DNA of 32,000 bases from Pseudoalteromonas tetraodonis (GTDB lineage: Bacteria; Pseudomonadota; Gammaproteobacteria; Enterobacterales; Alteromonadaceae). Shown in pieces: positions 12,386 to 27,790 of this stretch (position 1 is the first letter of the stretch; each line of letters begins with the position of its first letter). Position numbers and translations under genes: made by a program. The notes under the pieces were generated by a model, which was not told where the DNA came from, made no database searches, and saw nothing but the letters and a program-made list of their open reading frames with translations. Location of the stretch: the NCBI RefSeq assembly GCF_002310835.1, contig NZ_CP011041.1, forward strand, positions 480,001 through 512,000, written 5' to 3'.

Positions 12386-13270
12386 TTGAAAGCTGTAATT
12401 CCTGTTGCCGGTTTAGGCACCCGTATGTTGCCTATGACTAAGGCAATCCCAAAAGAAATGCTCCCCTTGGTTGATAAACCGCTTATTCAATACATAGTAA
12501 ATGAATGTGTGGCGGCGGGTATTAAAGAAATTGTGCTCGTGACACATAGCTCTAAAAATGCCATTGAAAACCATTTTGATACCAGTTTTGAGTTAGAAGC
12601 CACGTTAGAAAAACGCGTAAAACGTACTTTGCTAGATGAGGTGCGCTCTATTTGCCCAGCAGATGTTACTATTATGCACGTTCGCCAAGGTGAAGCTAAA
12701 GGCTTAGGGCACGCTATTTTATGTGCCAAGCCAATAGTTGGTGATAGTGACTTTGTTGTGGTTTTACCCGATGTAATTTTAGATGCTTATACGGCAGATC
12801 AAAAAACTGAAAACTTAGCGGCGATGATCGCACGCTTTAAGCAAACCCATGCCAGCCAAATTATGTTAGAGCCTGTTGCTATTGAAGATGTAAGTAAGTA
12901 CGGCATTGCTGATATTAATGGTGCAGAGCTTGCTGCTGGTGAAAGTGCAGCAATTAAAAAAATGGTTGAAAAACCAGCCGCAGATGTTGCTCCCTCAAAC
13001 TTAGCCGTTGTTGGTCGTTATGTTTTAAGTAAAAATATTTGGCCATTACTCGCTAAAACTCATGTAGGCGCAGGCGGTGAAATACAGCTAACAGATGCTA
13101 TTGATGCATTATTGGCTATTGATACGGTAGAAGCGTTTCATATGAGTGGTCGCTCACACGACTGTGGCGATAAACTCGGTTATTTAAAAGCGATTGTAGA
13201 ATACAGCATGCGCGATAAAAGCTTAGGCGATGAGTTTACTGAATATATGAAAGAGTTGGTTAAAGGATAA
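12386..13270 (+). CDS. galU: UTP-glucose-1-phosphate uridylyltransferase
   Basis: 294 aa. [39 protein letters not shown] and VEKP motifs are present. TTG start with AAAGGA upstream. Confidence 0.95.
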
Positions 13271-13340
13271 CGGGCGATGGGCATCGGGTAACGAGCTACG
13301 AGCGACGGGGTATGGGCATCGAGCCTAGAACCTCGAATTA
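13271..13340. repeat. Degenerate heptad tract (CGRGCNN-type units decaying to AGAACCT-type)
   Basis: cgggcga tgggcat cgggtaa cgagcta cgagcga cggggta tgggcat cgagcct agaacct cgaatta. It starts immediately after the galU stop. Confidence 0.85.
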
Positions 13341-13353
13341 ACCAGTTGGGCTA

Positions 13354-13455
13354 ATGGTTTTATTTTCTCATTTACTCCTCATTCACTTCTCTTTGTGAAT
13401 AAGATCTTAAAATATTTATGCACAAAGAGTTTAAGAGACGCAGCGCTTTTAGAGG
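13354..13455. repeat. Rearranged copy of the X module
   Basis: atggttttattttctcatttactcctcattcacttctctttgtg ... cacaaagagtttaagagacgcagcgcttttagagg. These are the same two arms as in the 27.8-kb units but in swapped order. Confidence 0.85.
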
Positions 13456-13460
13456 AAGTT

Positions 13461-13523
13461 ACGGACTGCGAGCTTCGGGTTACGGGCGACGAGCTTCGGG
13501 CCTAGAACCTAAATCCTAATACC
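13461..13523. repeat. Degenerate heptad tract
   Basis: acggact gcgagct tcgggtt acgggcg acgagct tcgggcc tagaacc taaatcc taatacc. Confidence 0.85.
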
Positions 13524-13550
13524 GACGCGGGGTGAACCCGCTGCTACAGG
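13524..13550 (-). repeat. REP-like hairpin element (reverse orientation)
   Basis: gacgcggggtgaacccgctgctacagg is the reverse complement of the GTAGCAGCGGGTT....CCGCG form seen at 27768. Confidence 0.85.
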
Positions 13551-13553
13551 TAT

Positions 13554-13587
13554 AAAAAAACCTTGCGATATTAGCCGCAAGGTTTTT
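13554..13587. terminator. Bidirectional rho-independent terminator between convergent galU and the MFS gene
   Basis: aaaaaaa-ccttgcg-atattagc-cgcaagg-ttttt: 7-bp GC-containing stem extended by A/T pairs, with an A-run on one side and a T-run on the other. Confidence 0.8.
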
Positions 13588-13597
13588 AAATATCTGG

Positions 13598-13658
13598 AAC
13601 CTTTAACCTTTAACCTTTAACCTTTAACCTTTAACCTTTAACCTTTAACCTTTAACCT
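13598..13658. repeat. Heptamer array (AACCTTT)n, 8.7 copies
   Basis: Read directly. It lies between the bidirectional terminator hairpin and the stop codon of the MFS gene. Confidence 0.97.
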
Positions 13659-13681
13659 CGCAGCTCGAACCTAGCACCCTT

Positions 13682-15049
13682 TTAAGCCCGACCTCGCAGC
13701 GCAGAAATACAGCTTGCCAGCATGACAAATCCTAATGACATTTTAAACGCCAATGAAATGGTGCTCATTAGTGCGTAGCTATTTTGCGCTGAGAAGGTGC
13801 TGTCGCCAAGGTAATAGTGCACAATTAAGTTGATTAAGCTCATGCCAAATAAATTACCAATAGTGCGTGATAAGTTCATTGAGGAAGACGCCACACCTAG
13901 CTCACTTTTATCCACTGCACCCATAATGGCATTGTTGTTAGGGGTCGAAAATAAGCCAAACCCAATCCCTAATAATAACAGTGAGCCACTAATGTAAGTG
14001 GTGCTTGAACTAACCGATAGCTGGGATAACAGAAAGAATCCAACCAGAACAATTACACAGCCTAGCGTGGCAAGTAAGCGTGGTTGTATTTTATCGGCAA
14101 GCTTGCCTGCTAGGGGCGCCATAATAGCCATTGAAACCGCTTGTAGTAATACTATTTGTCCTGCATGTGCGGGGCTTAATCCTTTTATATATTGCAGGTA
14201 CAAACTTAACAAAAAGGCCAGTGAAAAGTTACTAGCATACATGAGAAACGAAGTAGACAACGATAGGCTGAATACACGACTTTCTAAAAACATTTGTACT
14301 CTAATTAAGGGGCGCCGACTGCGACTTTGGTGAACAATAAATAGCATTAAACAAATGATTGAAAGTGCGGTTAATAGCCAGCCAGCTATATTCGGTAAAT
14401 CACTTAACCCTAATACCAAGCACAGTGCAAAGAGCGAGAAAATAACCATACCCCACCAGTCAAACGGCGATTTTTTATCGTTTTTCCATTCGCCATGTAA
14501 AAATAGTTTAATGGCAATAAGTAGCATAAGTACCAAGGGGATTTGCGAGTAAAACACGGCGCGCCATCCCCATATTTCAGTGAGCCAGCCACCAACCGCA
14601 GGCGCTGCACTGAGTCCTATGTATACACACGCCGCAGAGATGCCCAGTGCCATTCCGCGTTTATTATCAGGCGTAACAGAGGTAATAATGGCAACGCCTA
14701 TACCAAAAATCATGGCGCCTGCTGCCCCTTGTATAAAGCGCCAAAAAAGCACCCACTCAATAGAGTTTGCTAACGCACACATTAGCGAGGCCAGCGCATT
14801 TAAACCTAAACCAAATGCATACACGCGTTTGCGACCATAGTTGTCTGCTATTTTACCGCACGGCAGCATAAAAATGACGCTACTGAGTAAATACAAGGTG
14901 GGCATCCACGCAATCATTTTTGCGCTTGCGTGTAAATCTTCAGCAAGGTCAGGAATAGCGATATTAACGCCTGCCATGCCAAGCGGTCCAATAATAGAGC
15001 CGCTACAAACGATAATAAGTGCAATCGTAGTGGGGGGGAGATTAAACAA
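13682..15049 (-). CDS. MFS transporter (drug:H+ antiporter-like)
   Basis: 455 aa polytopic protein. MFS motif A GKIADNYGRKRVY lies between TM2 and TM3. TTG start with AAGGA 6 nt upstream. Confidence 0.8.
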   Translation of the reverse strand: MFNLPPTTIALIIVCSGSIIGPLGMAGVNIAIPDLAEDLHASAKMIAWMPTLYLLSSVIFMLPCGKIADNYGRKRVYAFGLGLNALASLMCALANSIEWVLFWRFIQGAAGAMIFGIGVAIITSVTPDNKRGMALGISAACVYIGLSAAPAVGGWLTEIWGWRAVFYSQIPLVLMLLIAIKLFLHGEWKNDKKSPFDWWGMVIFSLFALCLVLGLSDLPNIAGWLLTALSIICLMLFIVHQSRSRRPLIRVQMFLESRVFSLSLSTSFLMYASNFSLAFLLSLYLQYIKGLSPAHAGQIVLLQAVSMAIMAPLAGKLADKIQPRLLATLGCVIVLVGFFLLSQLSVSSSTTYISGSLLLLGIGFGLFSTPNNNAIMGAVDKSELGVASSSMNLSRTIGNLFGMSLINLIVHYYLGDSTFSAQNSYALMSTISLAFKMSLGFVMLASCISALRGRA

Positions 15050-15121
15050 GAGGTATCCTTTTATTTACTGGCCTTAAAATGATACGTGAATATACTTGCT
15101 TGTACAGGATTTAAAGGGCCG

Positions 15122-15233
15122 CGGGTTGCGGGCGACGAGCGGTGGGCAACGGGCTATGGGCTGCGAGCTACGAGTTACGAGTTACGAGCCTAGAGCTAAA
15201 CACCGAACCTCAAACCTAAAGCCTAAATCCTGC
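15122..15233. repeat. Degenerate heptad tract, 16 units
   Basis: cgggttg cgggcga cgagcgg tgggcaa cgggcta tgggctg cgagcta cgagtta cgagtta cgagcct agagcta aacaccg aacctca aacctaa agcctaa atcctgc. Confidence 0.88.
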
Positions 15234-15254
15234 GCGAGGTAAACTCCCGCCTAC
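15232..15254 (-). repeat. REP-like hairpin element (reverse orientation), left half of an inverted doublet
   Basis: gcgcgaggtaaactcccgcctac. Confidence 0.8.
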
Positions 15255-15280
15255 GGGCAAGTTAATATGGGTGTGTGAAT

Positions 15281-15302
15281 GTAGGCGTGGCTTTATACCG
15301 CG
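15281..15302 (+). repeat. REP-like hairpin element, right half of an inverted doublet
   Basis: gtaggcgtggctttataccgcg. Confidence 0.8.
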
Positions 15303-15367
15303 TATTTTACGTTTTGGATTAAAGGTTAAAGGTTGAGATTAAGCCAAGCACGGTGTTTGGATTGAAC

Positions 15368-15390
15368 GTAGGCGGGGCTTTATGCCGCGC
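15368..15390 (+). repeat. REP-like hairpin element
   Basis: gtaggcggggctttatgccgcgc, identical to the copy at 28067. Confidence 0.88.
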
Positions 15391-15431
15391 ACTGGTAGCT
15401 TTATGTCGCGTCAAAGGTAAAAAATTATTCA

Positions 15432-15545
15432 CCACAGAGGTCACAGAGGTCACAGAGGAAGTGATTAAAAGTAAAAACAGTTAGCTGTCAGCGTTCAAAA
15501 AGGTATTACTCTGTGTAGCGCGAAGCGCCTCGGTGCTCTCTGTGG
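15432..15545. repeat. Isolated copy of the Y hairpin module, left arm = (CACAGAGGT)x3
   Basis: ccacagaggtcacagaggtcacagagga ... ctctgtgtagcgcgaagcgcctcggtgctctctgtgg. The right arm is near-identical to the Y modules at 27.9-28.6 kb. Confidence 0.9.
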
Positions 15546-15605
15546 TTCAAAAATAAATATTTTAGGTTAAAGGCGAATGGTTAAAGTAAAAGAGCAGGTT
15601 TTAGA

Positions 15606-15640
15606 AATCAGATAGCAGACAGCAGATAGTAGAAATCAGA
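15606..15640. repeat. Short heptamer array: aatcaga tagcaga cagcaga tagtaga aatcaga
   Basis: Read directly. It abuts the stop codon of paralogue A, and the 7-bp phase continues leftward to about 15564 (aggttaa aggcgaa tggttaa ...). Confidence 0.85.
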
Positions 15641-15642
15641 CA

Positions 15643-15987
15643 TCAAGCAGAGTCGAACCTATTTTTTAAGCTAGTTAGCATAGCTGCTAACTCTTTTGTT
15701 TCTAAAACCCATACTTGGCTTATACCTTTTGGTAAATAGCCAATTTCATCCCCAATATAGATTTGGGTGCGCGCTTCACCTAGTGAGGCGCGTGCAATAT
15801 CAATAAAGCGGCTTTTTTCTTTAAAGCTTTCTCTGCAAACCCCCTCAGCTATATTGCTGGGAACCGATAGCGCAGACCGAGTTAACTGATCTCTAAACCC
15901 ATAATCTTTTAAATTAGCGGTAGATTTATAAATTTCACAACTTAGTTTTACAGATCTTTTCCATACATCTAAATGCTCAAAGTTCAT
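15643..15987 (-). CDS. Four-helix-bundle protein, 23S rRNA intervening-sequence protein / Avd family (paralogue A)
   Basis: 114 aa. FEHLDVWKRS...DQLTRSALSVPSNIAEG...RFIDIARASLGEARTQIYIG matches the PF05635/TIGR02436 pattern. Strong RBS (AGGAG, 5-nt spacer). It lies 58 bp downstream of the beta-CASP gene on the same strand. Confidence 0.85.
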   Translation of the reverse strand: MNFEHLDVWKRSVKLSCEIYKSTANLKDYGFRDQLTRSALSVPSNIAEGVCRESFKEKSRFIDIARASLGEARTQIYIGDEIGYLPKGISQVWVLETKELAAMLTSLKNRFDSA

Positions 15988-16010
15988 TACGATCTCCTAG
16001 GTTAAAATAA

Positions 16011-16031
16011 GACTTCTGATATCTGACTTCT
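16011..16031. repeat. Short heptamer array: gacttct gatatct gacttct
   Basis: Read directly in the 58-bp gap between the beta-CASP gene stop and the paralogue A start. Confidence 0.8.
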
Positions 16032-16045
16032 TATTTTACTGTTAT

Positions 16046-17428
16046 TTATCCCTTGCCAATTTCTACCGTCACCTCATCTCCCAATATTTCTCTGTATTTT
16101 GCTGCGAGTGTATTTTTAGCGTCATCATCGCCGTGAACTATTTTTATATGGTGGGGCTTTTTGCGCATACCGGTTACAAATTTAATGAGACCTGCCTGAT
16201 CTGCATGAGCACTATAACCGCTTATAGTGTGTATTTTGGCGTTAATATTCACCCTAGTATTATTTATCAACACGTAGCCATTTTTTGGTCCGTAGGTTTG
16301 TATGTCGCGACCTAATGTACCGCGCCCTTGGTAACCTACAAAGAGTACGTCGGTGGTTTTGTCGGTTAAAAAGCGCTCTAGGTAGTTAACTATTCGTCCG
16401 CCAGTGCACATACCGCTTGCAGCTAGAATAATTGCAGGTGTTTGGCGGCTGGCTAAGTAATTTATTAACGCTAAGTGCTCGCTATGGGTGTTTATAGTAG
16501 TGAGGTTTTCAAAGTCGAGTGGGTGACGACCTTTGGCTACTTTTTGTTTGGCTTCTTCATCCCATAAATATTTAAATTTTCGGTACTGCTGAGTAAAGTT
16601 AGCTGCCATGGGGGAGTCGAGTATTACTTGTATTGTGCGCCAAGGTGAGTTTTTAGCAGAAGCATGAATTAGCTGTTCAAGTTCGTATAACAGCTCTTGC
16701 GTGCGGCCAATACTAAAGGCAGGCACAAGTACTACGCCGTTATCGGCAACGGCGCGTTCAATCACGTTTTTTAAGGTTTGCGTACGTTGTTTACGACCTT
16801 GGTGATTTTTATCACCATAAGTTGACTCTATGACTAAGGTATCGGCTTTATAGGGCGCTTTAGGTGAGGGTAGTAAAGGCGTGTAGGGCGCACCTAAATC
16901 ACCAGAAAAAACCACTCTATGATTATTGCTCGCTTTATAAGGAGGCGTGCTTATGTCTATTTCTACATAAGCGGAGCCTAAAATATGCCCTGCTCGTTGT
17001 AGTCGGGCTTTAGCTGTGTGTTCACCTTTGCAAGGAAGCTCAAACCAGGCTTTAAAGTCTACTGCTACAACTTGTTGTTTAAGCAGCCTTAAGCAGGTAT
17101 CTATTATTTTTTGGTCTCGCGTAACGCCCACTTTTAATGCATCTTCAATGACTAACGGCAATAAGCTTGCTGATGCAACAGAGGTAAATATAGGGCTTTT
17201 AAAGCCAGCCATTAACAAATACGGAATTCGGCCAACATGATCAATATGGCAATGGGTAACTATTAATGCGCGAACAGTGTCTATATTAAATTCAATGCTT
17301 AGATCATCTACAGAGTCTTCACCCTGGAATAGTCCGCAATCAATTAGAAAAGAGCTTTGGTCGTTTATTATCAGCTGGTGGCATGAGCCTGTTACGCCAT
17401 TGACTGCTCCATGGTGAAGTATGTGCAT
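16046..17428 (-). CDS. MBL-fold metallo-hydrolase with beta-CASP / RNA-metabolising domain (RNase J / CPSF-like)
   Basis: 460 aa. HxHxDH motif (THCHIDHVGR), beta-CASP-type C-terminal region (ISGYSAHADQ, IVHGD). RBS AAGGAC upstream. Confidence 0.8.
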   Translation of the reverse strand: MHILHHGAVNGVTGSCHQLIINDQSSFLIDCGLFQGEDSVDDLSIEFNIDTVRALIVTHCHIDHVGRIPYLLMAGFKSPIFTSVASASLLPLVIEDALKVGVTRDQKIIDTCLRLLKQQVVAVDFKAWFELPCKGEHTAKARLQRAGHILGSAYVEIDISTPPYKASNNHRVVFSGDLGAPYTPLLPSPKAPYKADTLVIESTYGDKNHQGRKQRTQTLKNVIERAVADNGVVLVPAFSIGRTQELLYELEQLIHASAKNSPWRTIQVILDSPMAANFTQQYRKFKYLWDEEAKQKVAKGRHPLDFENLTTINTHSEHLALINYLASRQTPAIILAASGMCTGGRIVNYLERFLTDKTTDVLFVGYQGRGTLGRDIQTYGPKNGYVLINNTRVNINAKIHTISGYSAHADQAGLIKFVTGMRKKPHHIKIVHGDDDAKNTLAAKYREILGDEVTVEIGKG

Positions 17429-17450
17429 TTTATGTCCTTATGTTTGGCTG

Positions 17451-17513
17451 CGGGCCACGAGCCACGGGTTACGGCTCGAAGCTCGAGCCTAGCACTTAGA
17501 GCCTAACGCCTTT
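17451..17513. repeat. Degenerate heptad tract
   Basis: cgggcca cgagcca cgggtta cggctcg aagctcg agcctag cacttag agcctaa cgccttt. Confidence 0.85.
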
Positions 17514-17568
17514 ATTTTATAAGTAAATATAGCAGGTATTTTAATGTTGGTGGGACTTCATACCGTAA

Positions 17569-17627
17569 CGGGCGGGCAGCGTGCCACGAGCGACGAGCCT
17601 AGCAACTAACATCTTGAGCCTAATACT
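17569..17627. repeat. Degenerate heptad tract
   Basis: cgggcgg gcagcgt gccacga gcgacga gcctagc aactaac atcttga gcctaat ... Confidence 0.75.
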
Positions 17628-17654
17628 GACGCGGGGTAAACTCCCGCCTACAGG
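17628..17654 (-). repeat. REP-like hairpin element (reverse orientation)
   Basis: gacgcggggtaaactcccgcctacagg. Confidence 0.85.
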
Positions 17655-17657
17655 TAT

Positions 17658-17691
17658 AAAAAAACCTTGCGATATTAACCGCAAGGTTTTT
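17658..17691 (-). terminator. Rho-independent terminator of ppaC (same conserved hairpin)
   Basis: aaaaaaa-ccttgcg-atattaac-cgcaagg-ttttt. Read on the minus strand, the stem is followed by a T7 run. Confidence 0.8.
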
Positions 17692-17698
17692 AAATTTC

Positions 17699-17740
17699 TC
17701 GAACCTCGAACCTCGAACCTCGAACCTCGAACCTCGAACC
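17699..17740. repeat. Heptamer array (TCGAACC)6
   Basis: Read directly. Its last base is also the first base of the reverse-complemented ppaC stop codon (cta at 17740-17742). Confidence 0.97.
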
Positions 17741-18663
17741 TAGCTCTTAAAAGCGTCTTGTAGTGGTGGTACTACTTGCTTTTTACGGCTCAATACGCCA
17801 TCTAGCCATACTTTACCGTCTTCTGGCTTTTCACCATAGGCTTGCTCAACAAGGCTGGCATCGTCTGATGCAATCAGCATTTGTGAGCCTTCTTTCATAA
17901 TGTCGGTTAGTAGTAAAAATACTGAATGACGACCGCCTTCTTCTTTAAGCTTGGCAATGTCAGCTTCAAGGTCAGCTTTAATCTCGTCAAATACTGCAAG
18001 GTCAATAACTTCTAACTGACCAATGCCAACAAGGTTACCGTTCATGTTAAAGTCTTTAAAGTCACGCATTACTAAATCACGTACAGGCGTATCTTCAACG
18101 GCTGATTTAACGCGGAACATGTCCATGCCTAGTTCTTTAAAGTCTTCAATGCCTGCAATTTCAGCAAGGGCTTCAACACATTTAATGTCGGCAGTGGTAC
18201 AGGTTGGTGATTTAAAAATAACCGTGTCGCTTAATATGGCGCAAAGCATAATGCCAGCAATATCTTTAGGGATCTCTACGTTATAAAAATCGTACATCAT
18301 CTTAATAATGGTGTTAGAACAACCAACAGGGCGGATCCAGCACTCAAGTGGTGTTGATGAGGTTAGGTCACCTAACTTATGGTGATCTACCACGCCAACA
18401 ACGCGAGCTTGGTCGATATCATCAGGTGCTTGGGTTTTTTCTGTGTGGTCTACAATGTAAACGTCTTCGCCAGCGTAGCTAAGTTTAAGCTCAGGTGCTT
18501 CGAAGCCAAATTTATCTAAAATAAACTGTGTTTCTGGTGATACTTCACCAAGGCGGGTTGGAATTGCCGGCTCATCAATTTGGTTTTTTAAATAAGCCAG
18601 TGCAATTGCACCACATATTGAATCTGAATCTGGGATTTTATGGCCCACTACATACATTGACAT
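17740..18663 (-). CDS. ppaC: Manganese-dependent inorganic pyrophosphatase (family II, DHH family)
   Basis: MYVVGHKIPDSDSICGAIALAY, VDHHKLGD (DHH motif), DHHA2-like C-terminus. I use ATG 18663 (AAGGAG 7 nt upstream). The ORF-track start at 18699 adds 12 unsupported residues. Confidence 0.88.
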   Translation of the reverse strand: MSMYVVGHKIPDSDSICGAIALAYLKNQIDEPAIPTRLGEVSPETQFILDKFGFEAPELKLSYAGEDVYIVDHTEKTQAPDDIDQARVVGVVDHHKLGDLTSSTPLECWIRPVGCSNTIIKMMYDFYNVEIPKDIAGIMLCAILSDTVIFKSPTCTTADIKCVEALAEIAGIEDFKELGMDMFRVKSAVEDTPVRDLVMRDFKDFNMNGNLVGIGQLEVIDLAVFDEIKADLEADIAKLKEEGGRHSVFLLLTDIMKEGSQMLIASDDASLVEQAYGEKPEDGKVWLDGVLSRKKQVVPPLQDAFKS

Positions 18664-18780
18664 GACTAAACTCCTTAAAATTTGCCGATATTCTAGCAAA
18701 GTCTTTGGGTTTTAACATATAGACAGTGTAATTAAGTTTTGGTTACACTTTAAATCGATATTATTAATTGGAAGACCCAC

Positions 18781-19281
18781 ATGCAACTCGGCCGAAAAGG
18801 TTGGAACAATGTTATTATTTTTTCGATGTTGATTATGATCTTCTTTTTAAATGGACTGCATAAAAACATAGGGAATGATGAAACACAGGCACAATTGCAG
18901 CCACTACTTCCTTCGCAAAGTTTTGTATTAACGCTTAAATTTATCGACCAAAAAATTGAGCGTATTGGCACTAGTTGGCGTACTACTGCTTTGCAAAAAA
19001 GTGTACCGCTTAGTTGGCAAGGCTCAGAGCAGCAACTTAGTGAGCTAGTTTATTTATGGCAAAATACCGCGCTGATGACCACCACTACACCTGATGCGCT
19101 TGATATGAATAAGCCACTATCGGTAGCCACGCTTGAACTCGCCGGTGAGTCCTTACCTTGGGTGTACTTATTATATGAAGCAAATGGTCAGTATTATCTA
19201 TTCGATAAAACCAGTCAGCGATTATTGTTGCTAGATTTAACTACTGCAAAACAATTATTTCCAAGTTTTACCTTTTCATAA
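18781..19281 (+). CDS. Hypothetical protein with N-terminal membrane anchor
   Basis: 166-aa ORF with a hydrophobic N-terminal segment (VIIFSMLIMIFFL). It ends 13 bp before mutM. I recognise no family. Confidence 0.45.
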   Translation: MQLGRKGWNNVIIFSMLIMIFFLNGLHKNIGNDETQAQLQPLLPSQSFVLTLKFIDQKIERIGTSWRTTALQKSVPLSWQGSEQQLSELVYLWQNTALMTTTTPDALDMNKPLSVATLELAGESLPWVYLLYEANGQYYLFDKTSQRLLLLDLTTAKQLFPSFTFS

Positions 19282-19294
19282 GTGAGTTTTATAA

Positions 19295-20104
19295 ATGCCT
19301 GAATTACCAGAAGTAGAAGTTAGCCGTATGGGTATTACCCCCCATGTGCTAAACCAAGTTGTGACTAAGGTAAATATTCATAATGCCAGTATGCGCTGGC
19401 CTGTGCCAGATGAGGTGTATCAACTTGAGGGGGTAGTGGTTAGCAGTATTGAACGACGTGCAAAATACTTATTGTTAGAATGCGAGCTAGGCTCGGCTAT
19501 ATTGCATTTAGGTATGTCGGGTAACTTGCGGGTTGTGAACGCCAATGAGCCACTTAAAAAGCATGACCATGTTGAGTTTATTTTAGCGAATAATAAGGCG
19601 CTGCGTTTAAACGATCCACGTCGCTTTGGTTGCTGTTTATGGCAAGCCCCCAATGAAGAGCATAAGTTACTTGCTAAATTAGGCCCCGAGCCACTCACCG
19701 ATGACTTTTTTGCTAAACGTGTTTATGAGCAATCTCGTAATAAAAAAGTGCCTGTTAAACAGTTTATTACGAATAACGCCGTGGTGGTGGGGGTTGGTAA
19801 TATTTACGCTAACGAATCATTATTTAAAGCGGGTATCGATCCGCGAAAAGAAGCAGGTAAGGTAAGCCTTAAACGCTACCAAGCGTTAATCCCAATTATA
19901 AAAGACACCCTAGCCGCAGCAATTACTCAAGGCGGCACAACGCTGAAAGACTTTGCCCAAAGTGACGGTAAGCCAGGCTACTTTGCGCAGCAGCTATTAG
20001 TGTATGGCCGAAAAGGCCAGCCTTGTGTAAATTGCGAGAGCGAACTAACTGAAATTCGTCTAGGGCAACGCAGTACCGTTTTTTGTGAGGTGTGTCAGAA
20101 GTAG
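19295..20104 (+). CDS. mutM: Formamidopyrimidine-DNA glycosylase (Fpg)
   Basis: 269 aa. N-terminal MPELPEVE catalytic motif and C-terminal zinc finger CVNCES...FCEVCQ. Confidence 0.95.
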   Translation: MPELPEVEVSRMGITPHVLNQVVTKVNIHNASMRWPVPDEVYQLEGVVVSSIERRAKYLLLECELGSAILHLGMSGNLRVVNANEPLKKHDHVEFILANNKALRLNDPRRFGCCLWQAPNEEHKLLAKLGPEPLTDDFFAKRVYEQSRNKKVPVKQFITNNAVVVGVGNIYANESLFKAGIDPRKEAGKVSLKRYQALIPIIKDTLAAAITQGGTTLKDFAQSDGKPGYFAQQLLVYGRKGQPCVNCESELTEIRLGQRSTVFCEVCQK

Positions 20105-20109
20105 AGAAT

Positions 20110-20144
20110 AGCTGTCAGCTGTAAGTTTTCAGCTGTCAGTAAGA
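20110..20144. repeat. Short heptamer array: agctgtc agctgta agttttc agctgtc agtaaga
   Basis: Read directly between the mutM stop and the paralogue B stop. It contains the imperfect hairpin ctgtcagctg / cagctgtcag (20112-20139). Confidence 0.85.
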
Positions 20145-20148
20145 ATGG

Positions 20149-20496
20149 TTACTCACTTGTTTTTATTTTTGCTATCAAACTTGTTAGCATTTTTGACAGC
20201 TGGACTGTTTCATTTAGCCAAGACTTACCTATGTCGGTATCAATATAGTTAATATCGATGCCAATATATATTTGGGTTCTTGCCTCAGCAAGCGAAGAGC
20301 GAGCGATATCTAAAAAGCGTGTTTTTTCTTTATCACTCTCTCTTGTCATGCCCTCAGCTATATTACTAGGAACAGATAAACCAGAGCGTGTTAATTGATC
20401 TCTAAAGCTAAAGTCTTTAATTAGTTGTGTATTTCTGTAAATATCAGCGCTAAGGCGAGCTGAGCGCTTCCATACATCTAAGTTTTCAAAGTTCAT
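20149..20496 (-). CDS. Four-helix-bundle protein, 23S rRNA intervening-sequence protein / Avd family (paralogue B)
   Basis: 115 aa, aligning along its full length with paralogue A (MNFENLDVWKRS..DQLTRSGLSVPSNIAEG..RFLDIARSSLAEARTQIYIG). RBS AAGGA upstream. Confidence 0.85.
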   Translation of the reverse strand: MNFENLDVWKRSARLSADIYRNTQLIKDFSFRDQLTRSGLSVPSNIAEGMTRESDKEKTRFLDIARSSLAEARTQIYIGIDINYIDTDIGKSWLNETVQLSKMLTSLIAKIKTSE

Positions 20497-20609
20497 AATA
20501 CAAAATCCTTATGCTCAGTTTTTATCCTAGTTGATATTTTATTAACTACAAATATCTATTTTCAGCAAGGAAGTATTTTCTGTTGACTCTAAAGTTATAA
20601 TTAGCTTTT

Positions 20610-21138
<529 letters not shown>

Positions 21139-21194
21139 GTAATAACTTTTCTTGAGGAAAAAACAACCGGCCGGTAGCAATGTGATTTAAGTGC

Positions 21195-21203
21195 TGGTAT
21201 ACT
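21195..21203 (+). promoter_or_regulatory. Candidate extended -10 element (TGgTATACT) for rplM-rpsI
   Basis: It matches TGnTATAAT in 8 of 9 positions, about 155 bp upstream of the rplM ATG and about 57 bp to the right of the CTGACCG array. There is no good -35, and this is sequence match only. Confidence 0.3.
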
Positions 21204-21358
21204 CCCGCGTCTGCCACGTTGCGTTCTATGTCCTCATATAGTTTAGCCACTTGTGAGCGGCGCAAAAGTCTAAAACTCGAAGGGGTTGTAGCAAACTTAG
21301 AGCGGTAGTTAAACATAACTACCTGTGGTTTTAATTGAAAAACATTGGATTTTTATAA

Positions 21359-21787
21359 ATGAAAACGTTTGTTGCTAAACCAGAAACAGTAAAACGTGAC
21401 TGGTACGTAGTTGACGCTGAAGGTAAAACTTTAGGTCGCATCGCTACTGAAATCGCTCATCGCCTACGCGGTAAGCATAAAGCTGAGTACACACCGCACG
21501 TAGATACTGGTGATTACATCATCGTTATTAACGCTGAGAAAGTTACTGTTACTGGTAATAAATTCAAAGACAAAGTGTACTATGCTCACTCTGGTTTCCC
21601 AGGTGGTCTTAAGTCTACTACTTTTGATAAACTTCAAGCTGCAAAGCCTGAAATGATCATCGAAAAAGCTGTTAAAGGCATGTTGCCACGTGGTCCTTTA
21701 GGCCGCGCTATGTACCGTAAACTTAAAGTTTACGCGGGTACTGAGCACAATCATGCTGCACAACAGCCTCAGGTTCTAGACATTTAA
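21359..21787 (+). CDS. rplM: 50S ribosomal protein L13
   Basis: 142 aa; [27 protein letters not shown].. is canonical L13. Confidence 0.97.
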
Positions 21788-21798
21788 GGAGCACTATC

Positions 21799-22188
21799 AT
21801 GGCAAATCAATACTACGGTACAGGTCGTCGTAAAAGTTCAAGTGCTCGCGTATTCTTACGCCCAGGCACTGGTAACATCGTAATCAACAAGCGCTCTTTA
21901 GAAGAGTACTTTGGTCGCGAAACAGCACGCATGGTTGTTCGTCAAGCTCTTGAGCTTGTTGACATGACTGAAAAGTTTGACTTACACATCACCGTTGCTG
22001 GTGGTGGTACTACTGGTCAAGCTGGTGCTATCCGTCACGGTATCACTCGTGCACTTATGGAGTTTGACGAGTCATTACGTCCACAACTTCGTAAAGCAGG
22101 TTTCGTTACTCGTGATGCACGTAAAGTTGAACGTAAGAAAGTGGGTCTTAAGAAAGCGCGTAAGCGTCCACAGTTCTCAAAACGTTAA
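21799..22188 (+). CDS. rpsI: 30S ribosomal protein S9
   Basis: 129 aa; [16 protein letters not shown]...[18 protein letters not shown] is canonical S9. Confidence 0.97.
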
Positions 22189-22209
22189 TTTTTACGTTAT
22201 CAAGAATTC

Positions 22210-22236
22210 AAAAACCCAGCTTATGCTGGGTTTTTT
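22210..22236 (+). terminator. Rho-independent terminator of rplM-rpsI
   Basis: aaaaacccagc-ttat-gctgggtttttt, 22 bp after the rpsI stop. Confidence 0.85.
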
Positions 22237-22257
22237 GTTTTGTAGCTATAAGATTTT

Positions 22258-22901
22258 GGTTCAAGGTTCAAGGTTCAAGGTTCAAGGTTCAAGGTTCAAG
22301 GTTCAAGACTCAAGGTTCAAGGTTCAAGGTTCAAGGTTCAAGGTTCAAGGTTCAAGGTTCAAGGTTCAAGGTTCAAGGTTCAAGGTTCAAGGTTCAAGGT
22401 TCAAGGTTCAAGGTTCAAGGTTCAAGGTTCAAGGTTCAAAGCTCAAGGTTCAAAGCTCAAGGTTCAAGGTTCAAGGTTCAAGGTTCAAGGTTCAAGGTTC
22501 AAGGTTCAAGGTTCAAGGTTCAAGGTTCAAGGTTCAAGGTTCAAGGTTCAAGGTTCAAGGTTCAAGGTTCAAGGTTCAAGGTTCAAGGTTCAAGGTTCAA
22601 GGTTCAAGGTTCAAGGTTCAAGGTTCAAGGTTCAAGGTTCAAGGTTCAAGGTTCAAGGTTCAAGGTTCAAGGTTCAAGGTTCAAGGTTCAAGGTTCAAGG
22701 TTCAAGGTTCAAGGTTCAAGGTTCAAGGTTCAAGGTTCAAGGTTCAAGGTTCAAGGTTCAAGGTTCAAGGTTCAAGGTTCAAGGTTCAAGGTTCAAGGTT
22801 CAAAGCTCAAGGAGCAAGGTTCAAGGTTCAAGGAGCAAGGTTCAAGGTTCAAGGTTCAAGGTTCAAGGTTCAAGACTCAAGGTTCAAGACTCAAGGTTCA
22901 A
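22258..22901. repeat. Giant heptanucleotide tandem array (GGTTCAA)n, 92 copies
   Basis: Read directly: 644 bp in constant phase. Variant units are gactcaa (units 8, 89, 91), agctcaa (27, 29, 79) and ggagcaa (80, 83). Units 30-78 are perfect. Confidence 0.97.
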
Positions 22902-22981
22902 GCTATAAGTTTGATCTAAGCTTTGTGTCTTTCTTATTTTACAGTTATAAGTTAAGCATGTTTTAGCTGACTGGTTATGTT

Positions 22982-23329
22982 ATGAGGTTTGAAGATTTAA
23001 GGGTATGGCAACGTTCAGCCGATTTAGCTTGCGAGATTTATTTACATTTTAAGCAGAGTAAAGAGTTTGGTTTAAAAGATCAAATAACACGATCTGCGCT
23101 TTCAATTTCTTCAAATATAGCAGAGGGTTATGAACGGGTAACACCTAAAGATTATACTCGATTTTTATCATATTCTAAGGGGAGTTGTGGAGAATTACGC
23201 TCTCAAATTTACATTGCATTAAAAATAGGAGAGGTTGATACGACAAAGGCCACTGAATGGATTGAGGAAACTCGTGAACTTTCCCGTATGATTTCAGCAT
23301 TGATGAAATCAATCGATGCTTGGGAATAA
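22982..23329 (+). CDS. Four-helix-bundle protein, 23S rRNA intervening-sequence protein / Avd family (paralogue C)
   Basis: 115 aa. MRFEDLRVWQRS..DQITRSALSISSNIAEG..RFLSYSKGSCGELRSQIYIA has the same architecture as A and B but is more diverged. The Shine-Dalgarno is weak. Confidence 0.8.
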   Translation: MRFEDLRVWQRSADLACEIYLHFKQSKEFGLKDQITRSALSISSNIAEGYERVTPKDYTRFLSYSKGSCGELRSQIYIALKIGEVDTTKATEWIEETRELSRMISALMKSIDAWE

Positions 23330-23373
23330 GAGGTTCAAAATTTAATATTCATTCAAAAATATATGAGTATGTT

Positions 23374-23429
23374 TCGCCTTTCGCCTTTCACCTTTCACCT
23401 TTCATCTTTCATCTTTCATCTTTCATCTT
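23374..23429. repeat. Heptamer array with stepwise variants: (TCGCCTT)2 (TCACCTT)2 (TCATCTT)4
   Basis: Read directly, 45 bp downstream of the paralogue C stop. Confidence 0.95.
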
Positions 23430-23908
23430 CAATTTTCCCTTTAAGACTAATGTCGACATTAGCTTGATCAAAATAGGCCAAGTATGCGTATTTATTGAAC
23501 GAAAGCTTAAAAATGACCGACTAACGCAAAAAAAGTTAAATAATTATCGCAATTAGTTTAAATCCATCAGTTAATTGGTGAATTTTTTTGCTACAATTGG
23601 CGGGCAAATAAAGTGAATGAGTTTAATGTCGCCAAATTCAGTGGTTACTTTACTTAGTTGGTGAGATTGTACTTGTTTACAAATTGTTTTTACGGAAGCG
23701 ATACTATAGTCATTTGGTTTCATACTCGAGCTAACTTAATCAACTATTTGAGCAAGTCAGGATTATTCGAGCAGGAGGCTGTGAATAACCTTGTTTTAAA
23801 CAAGGGTTTTAATTATGATCGTTTCTCTTTTAAAATTCGAAAAATTAACCTGCTGTAACTGATGTTCTCAATATAGCAAGTGTTGAGAATCATAGTGGAG
23901 ATAAGTGG

Positions 23909-24499
23909 ATGAGCAATGCGCCTGTAGACAATGGCCGACGTCGCTTTTTAACCATAGCTACCTCTGTTGTTGGTGGTGTTGGTGCGGCTGGGGCTGCTGT
24001 TCCTTTTATTGCGTCTTGGAATCCAAGTGAGCGAGCTAAATCTGCGGGTGCGCCTGTAGAAGTAGATATCAGCAAACTTGAGCCAGGACAATTAATACGT
24101 GTCGAGTGGCGTGGTAAACCTGTATGGGTTGTATCACGGACCCCAAAAATGCTTGAGCAGATGAAAGAACATGAAGGTCAACTTCGTGATCCGCAATCGC
24201 AAGAGCCACAACAATTAGAATCATCAACCAATGATTTCCGTTCATTACGCCCAGAGATTTTTGTCGCTGTAGGTATTTGTACGCATTTGGGTTGTTCACC
24301 TAGCTTTTTACAAGGTGGCTTTGGTGAGAAAGTGGAAGGGACTGATGACGGTTTTTACTGTCCATGTCACGGTTCTAAGTTTGATATGGCCGGCCGTGTA
24401 TTTCAATCGGTACCTGCACCATTAAATTTAGAAGTTCCACCATATACTTTTCTTGATGAGACCACTATTTTAGTGGGCGAAGAACAAGGGGTGGCCTAA
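23909..24499 (+). CDS. petA: Ubiquinol-cytochrome c reductase iron-sulfur (Rieske) subunit
   Basis: 196 aa. Tat-like RRRFL N-terminus and Rieske boxes CTHLGC and CPCHGS. Confidence 0.95.
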   Translation: MSNAPVDNGRRRFLTIATSVVGGVGAAGAAVPFIASWNPSERAKSAGAPVEVDISKLEPGQLIRVEWRGKPVWVVSRTPKMLEQMKEHEGQLRDPQSQEPQQLESSTNDFRSLRPEIFVAVGICTHLGCSPSFLQGGFGEKVEGTDDGFYCPCHGSKFDMAGRVFQSVPAPLNLEVPPYTFLDETTILVGEEQGVA

Positions 24500-25764
24500 T
24501 GTTTGGAAAAATTGTTGAGTGGATAGACGACCGTATCCCAATGACACGTGTTTGGAACATGCACATTGCACAGTATCCAGCACCAAAAAACTTTAACTTC
24601 TGGTACTTCTTTGGCTCACTCGCTATGTTAGTACTAGTTAACCAAATCCTTACCGGTATTTGGTTAACGATGAACTATGTACCATCTGCTGAAGGTGCGT
24701 TTGCATCAGTAGAATACATCATGCGTGATGTAGAGTACGGTTGGTTATTACGTTATTTGCATTCAACGGGTGCATCTGCGTTCTTCATCGTTGTTTACAT
24801 GCATATGTTCCGTGGCATGATCTACGGTTCTTACCAAAAACCACGTGAATTACTGTGGTTATTCGGTATGTTTATTTTCCTAGCCCTAATGGCTGAAGCA
24901 TTCATGGGTTACTTATTACCATGGGGCCAAATGTCGTTCTGGGGTGCACAGGTAATCATTTCATTATTCGGGGCTATCCCGGTTATTGGTGATGATTTAA
25001 CACTGTGGATCCGTGGTGACTACGTTATTTCGGGTGCAACGCTTAACCGCTTCTTTGCATTACATGTAATTGCACTGCCATTGGTTATTGTTATCTTAGT
25101 ATTTTTACACATTGTTGCACTACACGAAGTGGGTTCAAACAACCCAGACGGTATTGATAACAAACGTAAAAAAGGAACTGTGGCTGAAGAAGATAAGCCT
25201 AAATTTAAGTTCCATGAATACTACACTGATAAAAAAGACATCATTGATGCGATTCCGTTCCACCCTTATTACACAGTAAAAGATATTGTGGGTGTGGTTG
25301 GCTTCTTAATCTTGTTCTGTTGGGTGGTGTTCTTTATGCCTGCTATGGGTGGTTTCTTCTTAGAAGCGCCAAACTTTGAACCGGCAAACCCACTCAAAAC
25401 ACCAGCGCATATTTTCCCTGTTTGGTACTTTACGCCGTTTTATGCAATCTTACGTGCGATTCCAGACAAGCTAATGGGTGTTGCAGCAATGGGTGCATCT
25501 ATTGTCGTGCTAGCATTATTGCCTTGGATTGACCGTGGTTCGGTTCGTTCAGTTCGTTACCGTTGTGGTTTCCACAAATGGAACATTGCAGGCTTTGTAG
25601 TTACTTTCGTTCTTTTAGGTTGGGTTGGTGCTACACCTCAAACTGACTTTAAAACGCTTGTTTCGCAAATCTGTACTGTGACTTACTTTATGTTCTTCGT
25701 ACTGTTATTTGTTTACAGTAAGAATGAAAAAACTAAGCCATTGCCTGAGAGGTTAACGAAATGA
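24499..25764 (+). CDS. petB: Cytochrome b (bc1 complex)
   Basis: 421 aa polytopic protein. RYLHSTGAS and FALHV heme-ligand regions and a PEWY-like PVWYF. Its start overlaps the petA stop. Confidence 0.95.
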   Translation: MFGKIVEWIDDRIPMTRVWNMHIAQYPAPKNFNFWYFFGSLAMLVLVNQILTGIWLTMNYVPSAEGAFASVEYIMRDVEYGWLLRYLHSTGASAFFIVVYMHMFRGMIYGSYQKPRELLWLFGMFIFLALMAEAFMGYLLPWGQMSFWGAQVIISLFGAIPVIGDDLTLWIRGDYVISGATLNRFFALHVIALPLVIVILVFLHIVALHEVGSNNPDGIDNKRKKGTVAEEDKPKFKFHEYYTDKKDIIDAIPFHPYYTVKDIVGVVGFLILFCWVVFFMPAMGGFFLEAPNFEPANPLKTPAHIFPVWYFTPFYAILRAIPDKLMGVAAMGASIVVLALLPWIDRGSVRSVRYRCGFHKWNIAGFVVTFVLLGWVGATPQTDFKTLVSQICTVTYFMFFVLLFVYSKNEKTKPLPERLTK

Positions 25765-26504
25765 TGAAAAAGCTACTTATTGGTTTATTCGCTTTATCAG
25801 TAAACGTATTACCAGCAATGGCGGCAGGCCCGTCAGTTCCTCTAATGGAAGCGGGTAACGATATATCTGATCAACCTTCTTTGCAACGTGGCGCAAAGTT
25901 GTTCATGAACTACTGTCTTGGTTGTCACCAAATGCAGTATCAACGTTATGAACGTACTTTCCGCGATATTGGTATTCCAACAGAGATTGGTCAAGAGCAA
26001 CTTATTTTTGATGGTTCAAAAGTAGGTAGTCATATCAATAATGCAATGAAGAAAGAAGATGCTGCAAAATGGTTTGGTGCGGCTCCGCCGGATCTAACAA
26101 ATGTTGCGCGTGTGCGTGGCAGTGATTGGATTTATACCTATTTAAAATCGTTTTACAAAGATGAATCTCGTCCGTTTGGCGTAAATAATACGTTATTCCC
26201 ATCGGTGGGTATGCCACATGTTCTTCAAGAGTTGCAAGGTGTTCCTACTGCAATTACTGAAGAAGTAACAGTAAATGGTAAAACAACCACTCATATTACT
26301 GGTACAGAAACAGATGGTACGGGCGAATTAAGTGTAGATGAATATGACCAAGCAGTTCGTGATTTAACGAATTTCCTAGAGTATGTAGGTGAACCTACAC
26401 GTCTCGAATCGGAAGCGCTAGGTATTAAGGTACTTGGATTCTTAGTGATTCTATTTATCTTGGCATTTATGCTGAAGAAAGAATACTGGAGAGATGTTCA
26501 TTAA
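25761..26504 (+). CDS. petC: Cytochrome c1
   Basis: 247 aa. Signal peptide, CLGCH heme-binding motif, C-terminal membrane anchor. It overlaps petB by 4 bp. Confidence 0.93.
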   Translation: MMKKLLIGLFALSVNVLPAMAAGPSVPLMEAGNDISDQPSLQRGAKLFMNYCLGCHQMQYQRYERTFRDIGIPTEIGQEQLIFDGSKVGSHINNAMKKEDAAKWFGAAPPDLTNVARVRGSDWIYTYLKSFYKDESRPFGVNNTLFPSVGMPHVLQELQGVPTAITEEVTVNGKTTTHITGTETDGTGELSVDEYDQAVRDLTNFLEYVGEPTRLESEALGIKVLGFLVILFILAFMLKKEYWRDVH

Positions 26505-26530
26505 GTTTGAACATATTTAAAGGTAATTTT

Positions 26531-26562
26531 GCAATAGGGGCTTAAGCCCCTATTGCTGTTTT
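26531..26562 (+). terminator. Rho-independent terminator/attenuator after petC
   Basis: gcaataggggc-ttaa-gcccctattgc followed by tgtttt. Confidence 0.75.
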
Positions 26563-26583
26563 AGTTATTTAATGGAGGTAGGC

Positions 26584-27210
26584 ATGGCCGTAGCTGCCAA
26601 TAAGCGCCCTGTAATGACCCTTTTTTCTGGTGCTAACTGTATGTATAGCCACCAAGTACGCATTGTACTTGCTGAAAAAGGTGTAAGTGTAGATATTCAT
26701 ATGGCTGAAAAGGATAATCTGCCAGAAGCACTTCACGAAATTAACCCTTACGGCACAGTGCCAACACTGATTGACCGTGAGCTTGGTTTATATCAGGCAA
26801 ACATCATCATGGAATACCTTGATGAACGTTTTCCTCATCCTCCACTAATGCCTGTATACCCGGTCATGCGTGGTCGTAGTCGTTTAATGATGCACCGTAT
26901 TGATACTGATTGGTACAGCCTAGCTGAAAAAATCATTAACAACACGTCTGAAGCAGCGCAAGCGCGTAAAGAGCTGACAGAAGCATTACTTGCAATAGCA
27001 CCCATCTTTAGTGAAGCGCCTTACTTTATGAGTGAAGAGTTTAGCTTAGTTGATTGTTACTTAGCTCCACTATTATGGCGTTTACCTGAGTTTGGTATTG
27101 AGCTAAATGGTGCAGGCTCTAAAGAACTTAAAGAGTATATGATCCGTTTATTTGAACGTGAATCATTCCAAGCTTCTTTAACTGAAGCAGAGCGTGAGAT
27201 CCGTTTATAA
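26584..27210 (+). CDS. sspA: Stringent starvation protein A
   Basis: MAVAANKRPVMTLFSG.. matches the E. coli SspA N-terminus. GGAGG lies 5 nt before ATG 26584; the ORF-track start at 26572 adds 4 residues. Confidence 0.93.
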   Translation: MAVAANKRPVMTLFSGANCMYSHQVRIVLAEKGVSVDIHMAEKDNLPEALHEINPYGTVPTLIDRELGLYQANIIMEYLDERFPHPPLMPVYPVMRGRSRLMMHRIDTDWYSLAEKIINNTSEAAQARKELTEALLAIAPIFSEAPYFMSEEFSLVDCYLAPLLWRLPEFGIELNGAGSKELKEYMIRLFERESFQASLTEAEREIRL

Positions 27211-27647: not shown

Positions 27648-27661
27648 CTCGTAAATGTTAG

Positions 27662-27691
27662 AAAAAAAACCGCTTAATAAGCGGTTTTTTT
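27662..27691 (+). terminator. Rho-independent terminator of sspAB
   Basis: aaaaaaaaccgctt-aata-agcggttttttt. Confidence 0.85.
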
Positions 27692-27708
27692 ATGCCTGAT
27701 TAAAAGTA

Positions 27709-27764: not shown

Positions 27765-27767
27765 GGT

Positions 27768-27790
27768 GTAGCAGCGGGTTTATTCCGCGC
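27768..27790 (+). repeat. REP-like hairpin element
   Basis: gtagcagcgggtttattccgcgc. Confidence 0.85.

Follow-up and report, generated by a model that had tools for sequence, protein, structure and literature searches.

PF05635 is a very large protein family that occurs in many phyla and is represented by two crystal structures, and we know of no function for it outside diversity-generating retroelements (DGRs). In the 23S rRNA intervening sequence (IVS) that Coxiella burnetii carries, a 28-bp stem of terminal inverted repeats encloses an open reading frame (ORF) for the family member S23p, two to three tandem GACAGAT heptamers lie upstream of this ORF in strain-variable number, and RNase III cleavage has been mapped within the stem (Warrier et al., PMC4990558). 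Here, we analyze a 32,000-nucleotide stretch of the genome of Pseudoalteromonas tetraodonis (RefSeq assembly GCF_002310835.1, contig NZ_CP011041.1, positions 480,001 to 512,000 of the forward strand; henceforth termed the window), which contains three solitary PF05635 genes, A, B and C. Each is the ORF of a cassette with a defined anatomy: a G-rich or purine-rich 5' arm of tandem heptamers, the PF05635 ORF, and a C-rich 3' arm that is roughly reverse-complementary to the first. The cassettes have the same parts as the Coxiella IVS and lie outside rRNA, in the spacers of protein-coding genes.

A second body of work concerns heptamer arrays as such. Heptameric tandem repeats are over-represented in many bacterial genomes, the cause being unknown (PMC4692102). 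Xanthomonas campestris holds 186 GGGAATC arrays, including 70 convergent (inverted) pairs whose role was left open between the DNA and the RNA level (Rehm et al., PMC4692102), an intergenic heptamer simple sequence repeat (SSR) of unit GGGGAYT is described for Nostoc (PMC4692102), and TAACTGA arrays occur in Beggiatoaceae, cyanobacteria and Bacteroidetes (MacGregor, PMC4679880). The arrays treated here resemble these SSRs in their period of seven, their mostly intergenic location and their strain-variable length, and the arms of the XCC0516-type gene from Xanthomonas are exactly GGGAATC repeats. They differ in that the heptad unit of the window clade changes from array to array, whereas the published SSRs follow one genome-wide motif. 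Term searches of the two SSR papers (PMC4692102, PMC4679880) returned no mention of the S23p or four-helix-bundle family. Literature searches for a connection of S23p or four-helix-bundle genes with heptamer repeats yielded the Coxiella IVS study only, and no publication on solitary genes of this kind with inverted heptamer arms; our coverage of the literature is incomplete, and an earlier description is possible.

An initial sequence-only reading of the window, made from its letters and translated ORFs, had recognized A, B and C as diverged PF05635/TIGR02436 paralogues, and profile and structure comparisons bear this out. All three proteins match PF05635 end to end (102-115 bits against a cutoff of 33.8), score 98-112 bits with TIGR02436 (cutoff 24) and reach 159-172 bits with the NCBIfam subfamily NF008912, above its curated cutoff of 124. 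A and B are 62% identical and A and C 45%, in agreement with the by-eye estimate of roughly 60% for the first pair and a greater distance for C; 43 columns are invariant in the three-protein alignment and 23 across 26 family sequences. An AlphaFold model of protein C, built from the 26-sequence alignment, consists of four helices (pLDDT 96.7) and superposes on XCC0516 (2GSC) with a template-modelling (TM) score of 0.89 and on BT_0352 (2RLD) with 0.82, these related Protein Data Bank (PDB) entries containing five chains each. The profile match to 2GSC has an E-value of 8e-22, and the DGR protein Avd (4DWL), about 9% identical in sequence, is matched with a TM score of 0.78. Pentameric XCC0516 and the Avd ring are homologues of the protein. 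With Avd (PDB 4DWL, 8UBE) it shares the four-helix-bundle fold and the placement in PF05635 by Pfam; the difference, beyond the low identity, is that no reverse transcriptase or template/variable repeat pair was detected in the window.

This last point, already made in the sequence-only reading, held up in several scans. No reverse transcriptase was found by Pfam among the ten ORFs between 115 and 10690, which encode polysaccharide-synthesis enzymes apart from the unmatched ORF 8103-9560, nor in the annotated homologous loci that cover the window from 9638 onward. A repeat search of 13000-32000 found no template/variable repeat pair and yielded only heptamer arrays, mosaic intergenic modules and the coding similarity of A and B. 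Rfam and tRNA scans of the window returned no rRNA, no tRNA and no Rfam family, and no transposase was found in it. PADLOC defence models gave zero matches for the three proteins, and PHROGs gave nothing except a weak match of protein C, and of that protein only, to Avd (1.7e-5).

The same reading had noted heptamer tracts on both sides of each gene. All six are present, ranging from three degenerate units to a perfect 75.6-copy array and a 92.1-copy array. Simple adjacency of gene and array is, however, uninformative in the window genome, because heptamer arrays are common in the gaps of its clade: period-7 arrays occupy 26 of the 51 intergenic gaps of at least 50 nt in the window clade, as against 5 of 741 gaps in 78 other gammaproteobacterial rplM-rpsI loci. 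These control loci were supplied by an RpsI-based contig scan in which at least two other Pseudoalteromonas species were among the matches listed. Three gaps of the window (13271-13681, 17429-17739 and 27648-28886) hold arrays and no family gene. The caveat that some association would arise by chance was thus a real one, and two things rise above chance: that the arms are inverted, and that gene and arms are inherited together.

Inversion is the decisive feature, and it had been missed: the arrays flanking a given gene are mutually reverse-complementary. Read on the gene's sense strand, the upstream tract is the approximate reverse complement of the downstream tract. In cassette A, the 5' arm AGAAGTCAGATATCAGA and the reverse complement of the 3' arm, AGAAATCAGATAGCAGA, agree at 15 of 17 positions, giving an inverted-flank score of 24 that only 4 of 199 control genes match or beat. 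In cassette B, (CGGTCAG)75 faces CTGTCAG, the reverse complement of the CTGACAG units of the 3' arm, with 6 of 7 matches per unit. Its score of 26 and that of A lie in the top 1-2% of control genes. In the window strain, A and B show significant inversion and C a weak one; in sister strains L001 and L002, arms at the C slot reach significant complementarity (z -3.2 and -4.9). Minimum-free-energy folds of A, B and C contain an arm-arm stem enclosing the ORF (Z-scores -2.1 to -2.6), and centroid folds retain such an ORF-closing stem in A and C. Across nine distinct cassettes from Pseudoalteromonas, Vibrio breoganii and Halomonas, the median inverted-flank score is 26 compared with 16 in 75 other genes (Mann-Whitney p=2.5e-5), and direct-repeat scores are alike. 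Because insertion into an existing array would leave direct and not inverted flanks, the arms are part of the cassette, and the earlier picture of genes inserted into 7-bp repeat DNA does not fit.

The architecture extends far beyond this genus. Using the family alignment, we scanned metagenomes and obtained 80 loci with 38-57% identity to C and GC contents of 30-69%, of which 70 genes (67 clusters at 80% identity) had full flanks. An inverted-flank score of at least 26 was found for 46 of these 70 members and for 7 of 228 neighbouring genes (p=3.6e-24). The difference holds (p=2e-7) when the comparison is made with 27 controls whose flanks are non-coding on both sides, and within the same flanks inverted scores exceed direct ones (Wilcoxon p=4e-9). 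Median arm length is 28 nt; the 5' arm stops about 26 nt short of the ATG, and the 3' arm begins about 15 nt past the stop codon. Arms consist of tandem 7-mers, sometimes 8-mers, and 81% of the tandem arrays within 200 nt of family genes have period 7. The unit varies in almost every cassette and complementarity is kept, as in the pairs GGAGAAC/CTCCGGT, GCAGAAA/CTTTCTG, GGGTCTG/CAGACCC and CAGTTAA/CTGTTAA. Of the gaps adjoining family genes, 47 of 81 contain period-7 arrays, as do 22 of the 104 remaining gaps on the same contigs (odds ratio 5.2, p=3e-7). In all fetched loci, no other gene family has inverted heptad flanks, the only other ORF so flanked being a second, divergent family member. 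Conserved 23S rRNA motifs were found in none of the fetched loci, which is a weak check.

Inverted-arm cassettes occur in independent lineages, including Vibrio breoganii, Halomonas and Pseudoalteromonas SS15, and their insertion sites are spacers of conserved or polysaccharide operons. The Vibrio cassette lies between genes with PAPS-reductase and APS-kinase domains and the Halomonas cassette between genes with LMWPc and Wzz domains; the family members in Vibrio, Halomonas and Pseudoalteromonas SS15 sit in polysaccharide clusters. The orthologue of XCC0516 in Xanthomonas campestris is placed between accB and accC with GGGAATC arms and an inverted score of 46, and rpsI is directly followed by a family member in the window, in L070 and in L103, which stand for three unrelated lineages.

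The cassettes are also polarized with respect to their surroundings. Family genes share the direction of the upstream neighbour in 62 of 69 cases and that of the downstream one in 59 of 67, and their median gaps are 67 nt upstream and 52 nt downstream; the arms therefore nearly fill the spacers. In the 5' arm, G exceeds C in 50 cassettes and falls below it in 3 (p=5.5e-12), and 45 of 54 such arms are purine-rich. GC skew is +0.27 upstream and -0.24 downstream, compared with -0.04 and +0.08 in controls, and the C content of the downstream arm exceeds what complementarity alone needs. Within the window, gene A follows the beta-CASP gene in the same direction at a distance of 58 nt, B is situated between mutM and rplM, and C comes after rpsI.

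Comparisons between strains indicate how gene and arms are inherited. The window locus is also present in CP001796 (strain SM9913), CP011030, CP076084 and many metagenomic contigs. At slot B, the gene and its flanks are identical in six strains, and protein B is 100% identical in L001-L006, while the array ranges from about 1.5 to 75.6 copies (about 1.5, 2.6, 10.6, 11.6 and 14.6 in the other strains). Gene B is missing from strains L177 and L174, where homology to the window breaks off at 20103, the mutM stop codon, and restarts at 21144, five bases beyond the B array. Slot C is occupied in strains L005 and L006 by another family member (41% identity), which comes with an array of its own; here homology ends at 22241 and restarts at 23433, and the replaced segment, which begins right after the rpsI terminator, comprises array, gene and array. 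The 5' array of this slot has 7.7 to about 55 copies in other strains, and in P. luteoviolacea the rpsI-petA slot is empty, with a 493-bp gap. At slot A, a segment of about 830 bp whose left edge is the beta-CASP stop codon, just before the 5' arm, is missing from L001, L003, L004 and L006.

These cases of presence, absence and allele replacement occur between strains whose flanking genes are about 100% identical, and the breakpoints coincide with the outer edges of the arms. Being present, absent or swapped together, the gene and both arms behave as a cassette, as the sequence-only reading had proposed; they co-vary in slots A, B and C, whereas the length of the B array also varies alone. As to its further suggestion that the cassette is perhaps mobile, recent transposition finds no support: identical-protein look-ups for A and C gave the same synteny only, protein A standing always behind the same beta-CASP gene. 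Cassettes A, B and C share no non-coding sequence. No target-site duplication was noticed while reading the junction sequences, for which no systematic search was made. The coordinates of all cassette parts are collected in Table 1.

Table 1. Genes, arms and associated elements of the three cassettes (positions refer to the window; TRF, Tandem Repeats Finder; MITE, miniature inverted-repeat transposable element; REP, repetitive extragenic palindrome).
Feature	Position	Strand	Description
Gene A	15643..15987	-	114 aa four-helix-bundle protein; PF05635 E 2.3e-29; NF008912 165.5 bits
Gene B	20149..20496	-	115 aa four-helix-bundle protein; PF05635 E 4.9e-32; NF008912 172 bits
Gene C	22982..23329	+	115 aa four-helix-bundle protein; PF05635 E 1.8e-33
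Cassette A 5' arm	16011..16031	-	AGAAGTC AGATATC AGAAGTC; three units, below TRF threshold
Cassette A 3' arm	15603..15640	-	degenerate TGTCTGA TTTCTAC TATCTGC TGTCTGC TATCTGA TTTCT; TRF period 7, 5.4 copies, 74% matches
Segment of about 830 bp with cassette A	15216..16046	-	in the window and SM9913; holds MITE-like and REP-like units
'CACAGAG' MITE-like element in cassette A segment	15425-15551		repeat families D12, D13, D15 for the segment
REP-like units in cassette A segment	15281-15304, 15368-15391		
Cassette B 5' arm	20610..21138	-	perfect array, 529 nt; sense (CGGTCAG)75.6, forward strand (CTGACCG)75.6
Cassette B leader, 5' arm to ATG	20497..20609	-	113 nt
Cassette B 3' arm	20110..20144	-	CTGACAG-type heptads; TRF tract 20110-20139, 4.3 copies, 73% matches
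Whole cassette B	20104..21143	-	limits from presence/absence in strains
rplM-rpsI intrinsic terminator hairpin	22210..22235	+	just outside cassette C; kept in strains with the other C allele
Cassette C 5' arm	22258..22902	+	(GGTTCAA)92.1 = (AAGGTTC)n; 95% matches
Cassette C 3' arm	23372..23437	+	TTTCGCC x2, TTTCACC x2, TTTCATC x4; TRF 23372-23429, 8.3 copies, 96% matches
Whole cassette C	22242..23432	+	limits from allele replacement

The sequence-only reading had placed the genes outside both known contexts of the family and had found no described system to match them. The first statement stands as far as the lack of rRNA and reverse transcriptase goes, but the architecture is that of the 23S rRNA IVS, and the Coxiella element (PMC4990558) has the same parts. 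With the IVSs of Coxiella burnetii and Leptospira (PMC4990558), the cassettes share the protein family and an ORF located within stem-forming terminal inverted repeats. In Coxiella as in the window, tandem heptamers adjoin the ORF and differ in copy number among strains, purine-rich heptads (GACAGAT in Coxiella) stand on the 5' side, and the ORF lies on the sense strand of the host transcript. In contrast to the IVSs, the window cassettes lie outside rRNA, in spacers between or after protein-coding genes, and their arms are themselves made of tandem heptads, up to hundreds of bases long. RNase III cleavage has been demonstrated for the rRNA IVS, whereas we infer it for cassettes of the window type; and the proteins of solitary cassettes are well conserved, as the invariant columns of the 26-sequence alignment indicate, while the Coxiella ORF is decaying.

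On this basis, we think it reasonably probable that A, B and C are the ORFs of IVS-type cassettes located outside rRNA, with arm pairing and RNase III cutting proposed from the likeness. Pairing in the transcript, the arms would form a long, imperfect duplex and so enclose the ORF in a loop, and RNase III would cut this duplex, freeing an ORF-bearing RNA from the flanking cistrons. By our reasoning, a cut between cistrons, like a cut at the tip of an rRNA helix, should require no religation, so that both intercistronic spacers and rRNA helix tips would tolerate the element. Arms built of tandem repeats would offer many pairing registers and could expand and contract by slippage, which would explain the 75- and 92-copy arrays of the window strain. 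The protein might, at a guess, bind either the heptad arm or the RNA that is excised. Anatomy, family specificity, breadth, strand asymmetry, co-orientation, co-inheritance and rapid change of arm length are established properties of the cassettes.

Several observations weigh against the IVS-type proposal. The RNA processing itself is carried over by analogy from the 23S rRNA IVS, and S23p itself seems not to be produced in Coxiella (PMC4990558). A G·U wobble test on arm mismatches counted 67 sense-compatible and 80 antisense-compatible cases, a difference that is not significant and tends slightly in the opposite direction; since selection on a helix is expected to leave an excess, the missing sense-strand signal speaks against an RNA helix. 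The G-rich rule for the 5' arm is likewise unaccounted for by a plain duplex model. Cassette C, in the window strain, has only 5 of 7 matches per heptad, (AAGGTTC)92 facing TTTCACC-type units such that only an AAGGU:ACCUU core pairs, and its duplex energy is no better than that of shuffles. The C allele of L005 and L006 has a downstream array only, and about a third of the metagenomic members are missing a strong inverted pair. Transcription poses a further difficulty: gene B is convergent with mutM and divergent from rplM, an intrinsic terminator stands between rpsI and cassette C, and if the promoter of gene B is in its 113-nt leader, where a weak sigma-70-like match (20565-20536) is no better than in shuffled sequence, the 529-nt 5' arm would not be co-transcribed.

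Among the alternatives, the arms could act at the DNA level, as terminal inverted repeats (TIRs) or a cruciform of a non-autonomous mobile cassette whose RNA stem is a by-product, the agent being a recombinase or transposase in trans or homologous recombination after transfer. We regard this as unlikely. Inverted-repeat elements in transcribed spacers are familiar as enterobacterial repetitive intergenic consensus (ERIC) sequences, Correia/NEMIS elements and bacterial interspersed mosaic elements (BIMEs), and RNase III cleavage of an mRNA hairpin has been reported for Correia elements. ERIC, Correia and BIME elements are, however, short, free of ORFs and conserved in sequence throughout the family, whereas window-type cassettes carry an ORF and conserve complementarity only. 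Nor is the conserved TIR of a MITE or transposon with a passenger gene seen here, as the arm units differ among A, B, C and nearly all relatives, which leaves nothing conserved for a sequence-specific transposase to recognize. The exchange of gene and arms amid nearly identical flanking genes would suit a DNA-level element, as would the missing sense-strand G·U signature, the 70 convergent heptamer pairs of Xanthomonas (PMC4692102), whose level of action is open, and the PDDEXK_3, Y1 transposase and hipBA genes housed by the same gaps in sister strains. Against it stand the single genomic context of the identical protein A, the lack of shared non-coding sequence among A, B and C and of any target-site duplication noticed at the junctions read (with no systematic search), and strand specificity: a co-orientation of about 90% together with the G-rich-5'/C-rich-3' rule points to a transcription-linked role.

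It is also conceivable, though we find it rather improbable, that the arms are binding sites, on DNA or RNA, for the encoded ring oligomer and that their inversion is secondary, the purpose being autoregulation or action on the solitary heptamer arrays of the genome. Such sites would account for arms that obey a composition rule of their own and for a downstream arm richer in C than complementarity demands, and the structural relative Avd (TM 0.78) is part of a ribonucleoprotein in PDB 8UBE and 8UB7. Period-7 arrays are present in 21% of the non-adjacent gaps on gene-bearing contigs, compared with 0.7% in generic gammaproteobacterial loci and 51% in the window clade, backgrounds compared without phylogenetic matching; some heptamer-bearing loci have no family member nearby. 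The heptad units differ widely even between proteins that are 55-65% identical, which argues against sequence-specific recognition. The DNA-level and binding-site readings could both be true. Repeat number varies from 1.5 to 75.6 copies at B and from 7.7 to 92 at C; the arrays could act as contingency loci (SSR phase variation) if they lie where their length alters expression of the adjacent gene. Finally, coincidence, by which small accessory genes would land in the same variable gaps that arrays fill anyway, could draw on the 26 array-bearing clade gaps, the three window gaps with arrays alone and the B array that changes length at an otherwise identical locus, but is very improbable given flanks that are specifically inverted and not direct, breakpoints at the outer arm edges and recurrence of the layout where arrays are otherwise much rarer.

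The intergenic DNA of the region has further features of its own. Between sspB and a BON-domain gene, a 288-bp unit is repeated three times (27779-28652); it is built of the modules that follow gene A, namely the REP-like GTAGGCGGGGCTTTATGCCGCGCA and the 'CACAGAG...CTCTGTG' MITE-like element (families D3, D5, D11-D15). Three copies exist of a conserved hairpin module that resembles a bidirectional terminator, AAAAACCTTGCG...CGCAAGGTTTTT (13547-13596, 17651-17691 and 28742-28791; I1, I5, I6, D4, D9), and each copy adjoins an array (AACCTTT, CTCGAAC, GAACCTC) whose unit resembles the hairpin stem. G+C-rich degenerate heptads of the type CGGGCGA/CGAGCTA/CGGGTAA (13270-13330, 13458-13500, 15114-15208, 17440-17500 and 27728-27758) are distinct from the perfect arrays and fill the empty slots A and B of sister strains. 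The gaps between the DHH and beta-CASP genes (17429-17739) and between the beta-CASP and MFS genes (15050-16045) are hot spots of gene turnover, in which the small accessory genes vary among L002-L006 and L176-L181 and include PDDEXK_3 (PF13366), a Y1 (IS200/RAYT-like) transposase or hipBA. In sister strains, it is 'CACAGAG' elements and not inverted heptads that flank the PDDEXK_3 genes.

Around the insertion sites, an insertion sequence (rve) element separates rpsI from gene C in L188 (1657-2825). The gene mutM is not the ancestral neighbour of rplM: an AFG1/ZapE-type ATPase gene takes its place in L190 (634-1965), and P. luteoviolacea (L008) has no mutM upstream of rplM; the window clade underwent a rearrangement in this upstream region. 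At the Xanthomonas locus (L193, 4331-4375), the C-rich 3' arm (…CCTATTCCCATG) runs directly up to the accC start codon and no Shine-Dalgarno sequence can be seen, which prompts the question how accC comes to be translated. Spurious ORFs of 212, 256 and 329 aa span heptamer arrays (20542-21316 on the minus strand and 21977-22966 on the plus strand); such array-spanning ORFs are annotated in sister strains, one of them with a weak ice-binding-repeat Pfam hit. In a Vibrio scaffold (L088, 10374-11115), a run of N comes right after a CTTGAAC array, and heptamer arrays thus seem to break short-read assemblies. In the polysaccharide cluster upstream, GT10 and GT11 fucosyltransferase-family enzymes are encoded beside GDP-mannose dehydratase and epimerase genes (6179-8098).

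A wider reading would make the PF05635 protein and heptamer arrays one widespread system, and taken as a whole we consider it doubtful. In it, the ring-shaped protein would have heptad-repeat nucleic acid as its target, and the cassettes, as intron-like selfish elements, would colonize any place where a discontinuity in the RNA is tolerated, at rRNA helix tips as in intercistronic spacers. They might spread through the excised RNA and a reverse transcriptase acting in trans, which is conceivable because the structural relative Avd is a reverse transcriptase cofactor, and the solitary arrays of Pseudoalteromonas, Xanthomonas and Nostoc would be their footprints or targets. If true, it would account for the excess of heptameric SSRs that has long been noted in bacteria.

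In practical terms, the arrays seem to break short-read assemblies, and they generate spurious ORFs of 212-329 aa. For the biology of the family, solitary PF05635 genes are typically bracketed by inverted, strand-asymmetric heptad arms, and the rRNA IVSs and the operon-embedded copies share one architecture. The IVS-type model suggests a class of element that would be cut out of polycistronic RNA instead of being spliced, and the finding connects PF05635 with heptamer repeats and their unexplained excess in bacterial genomes.

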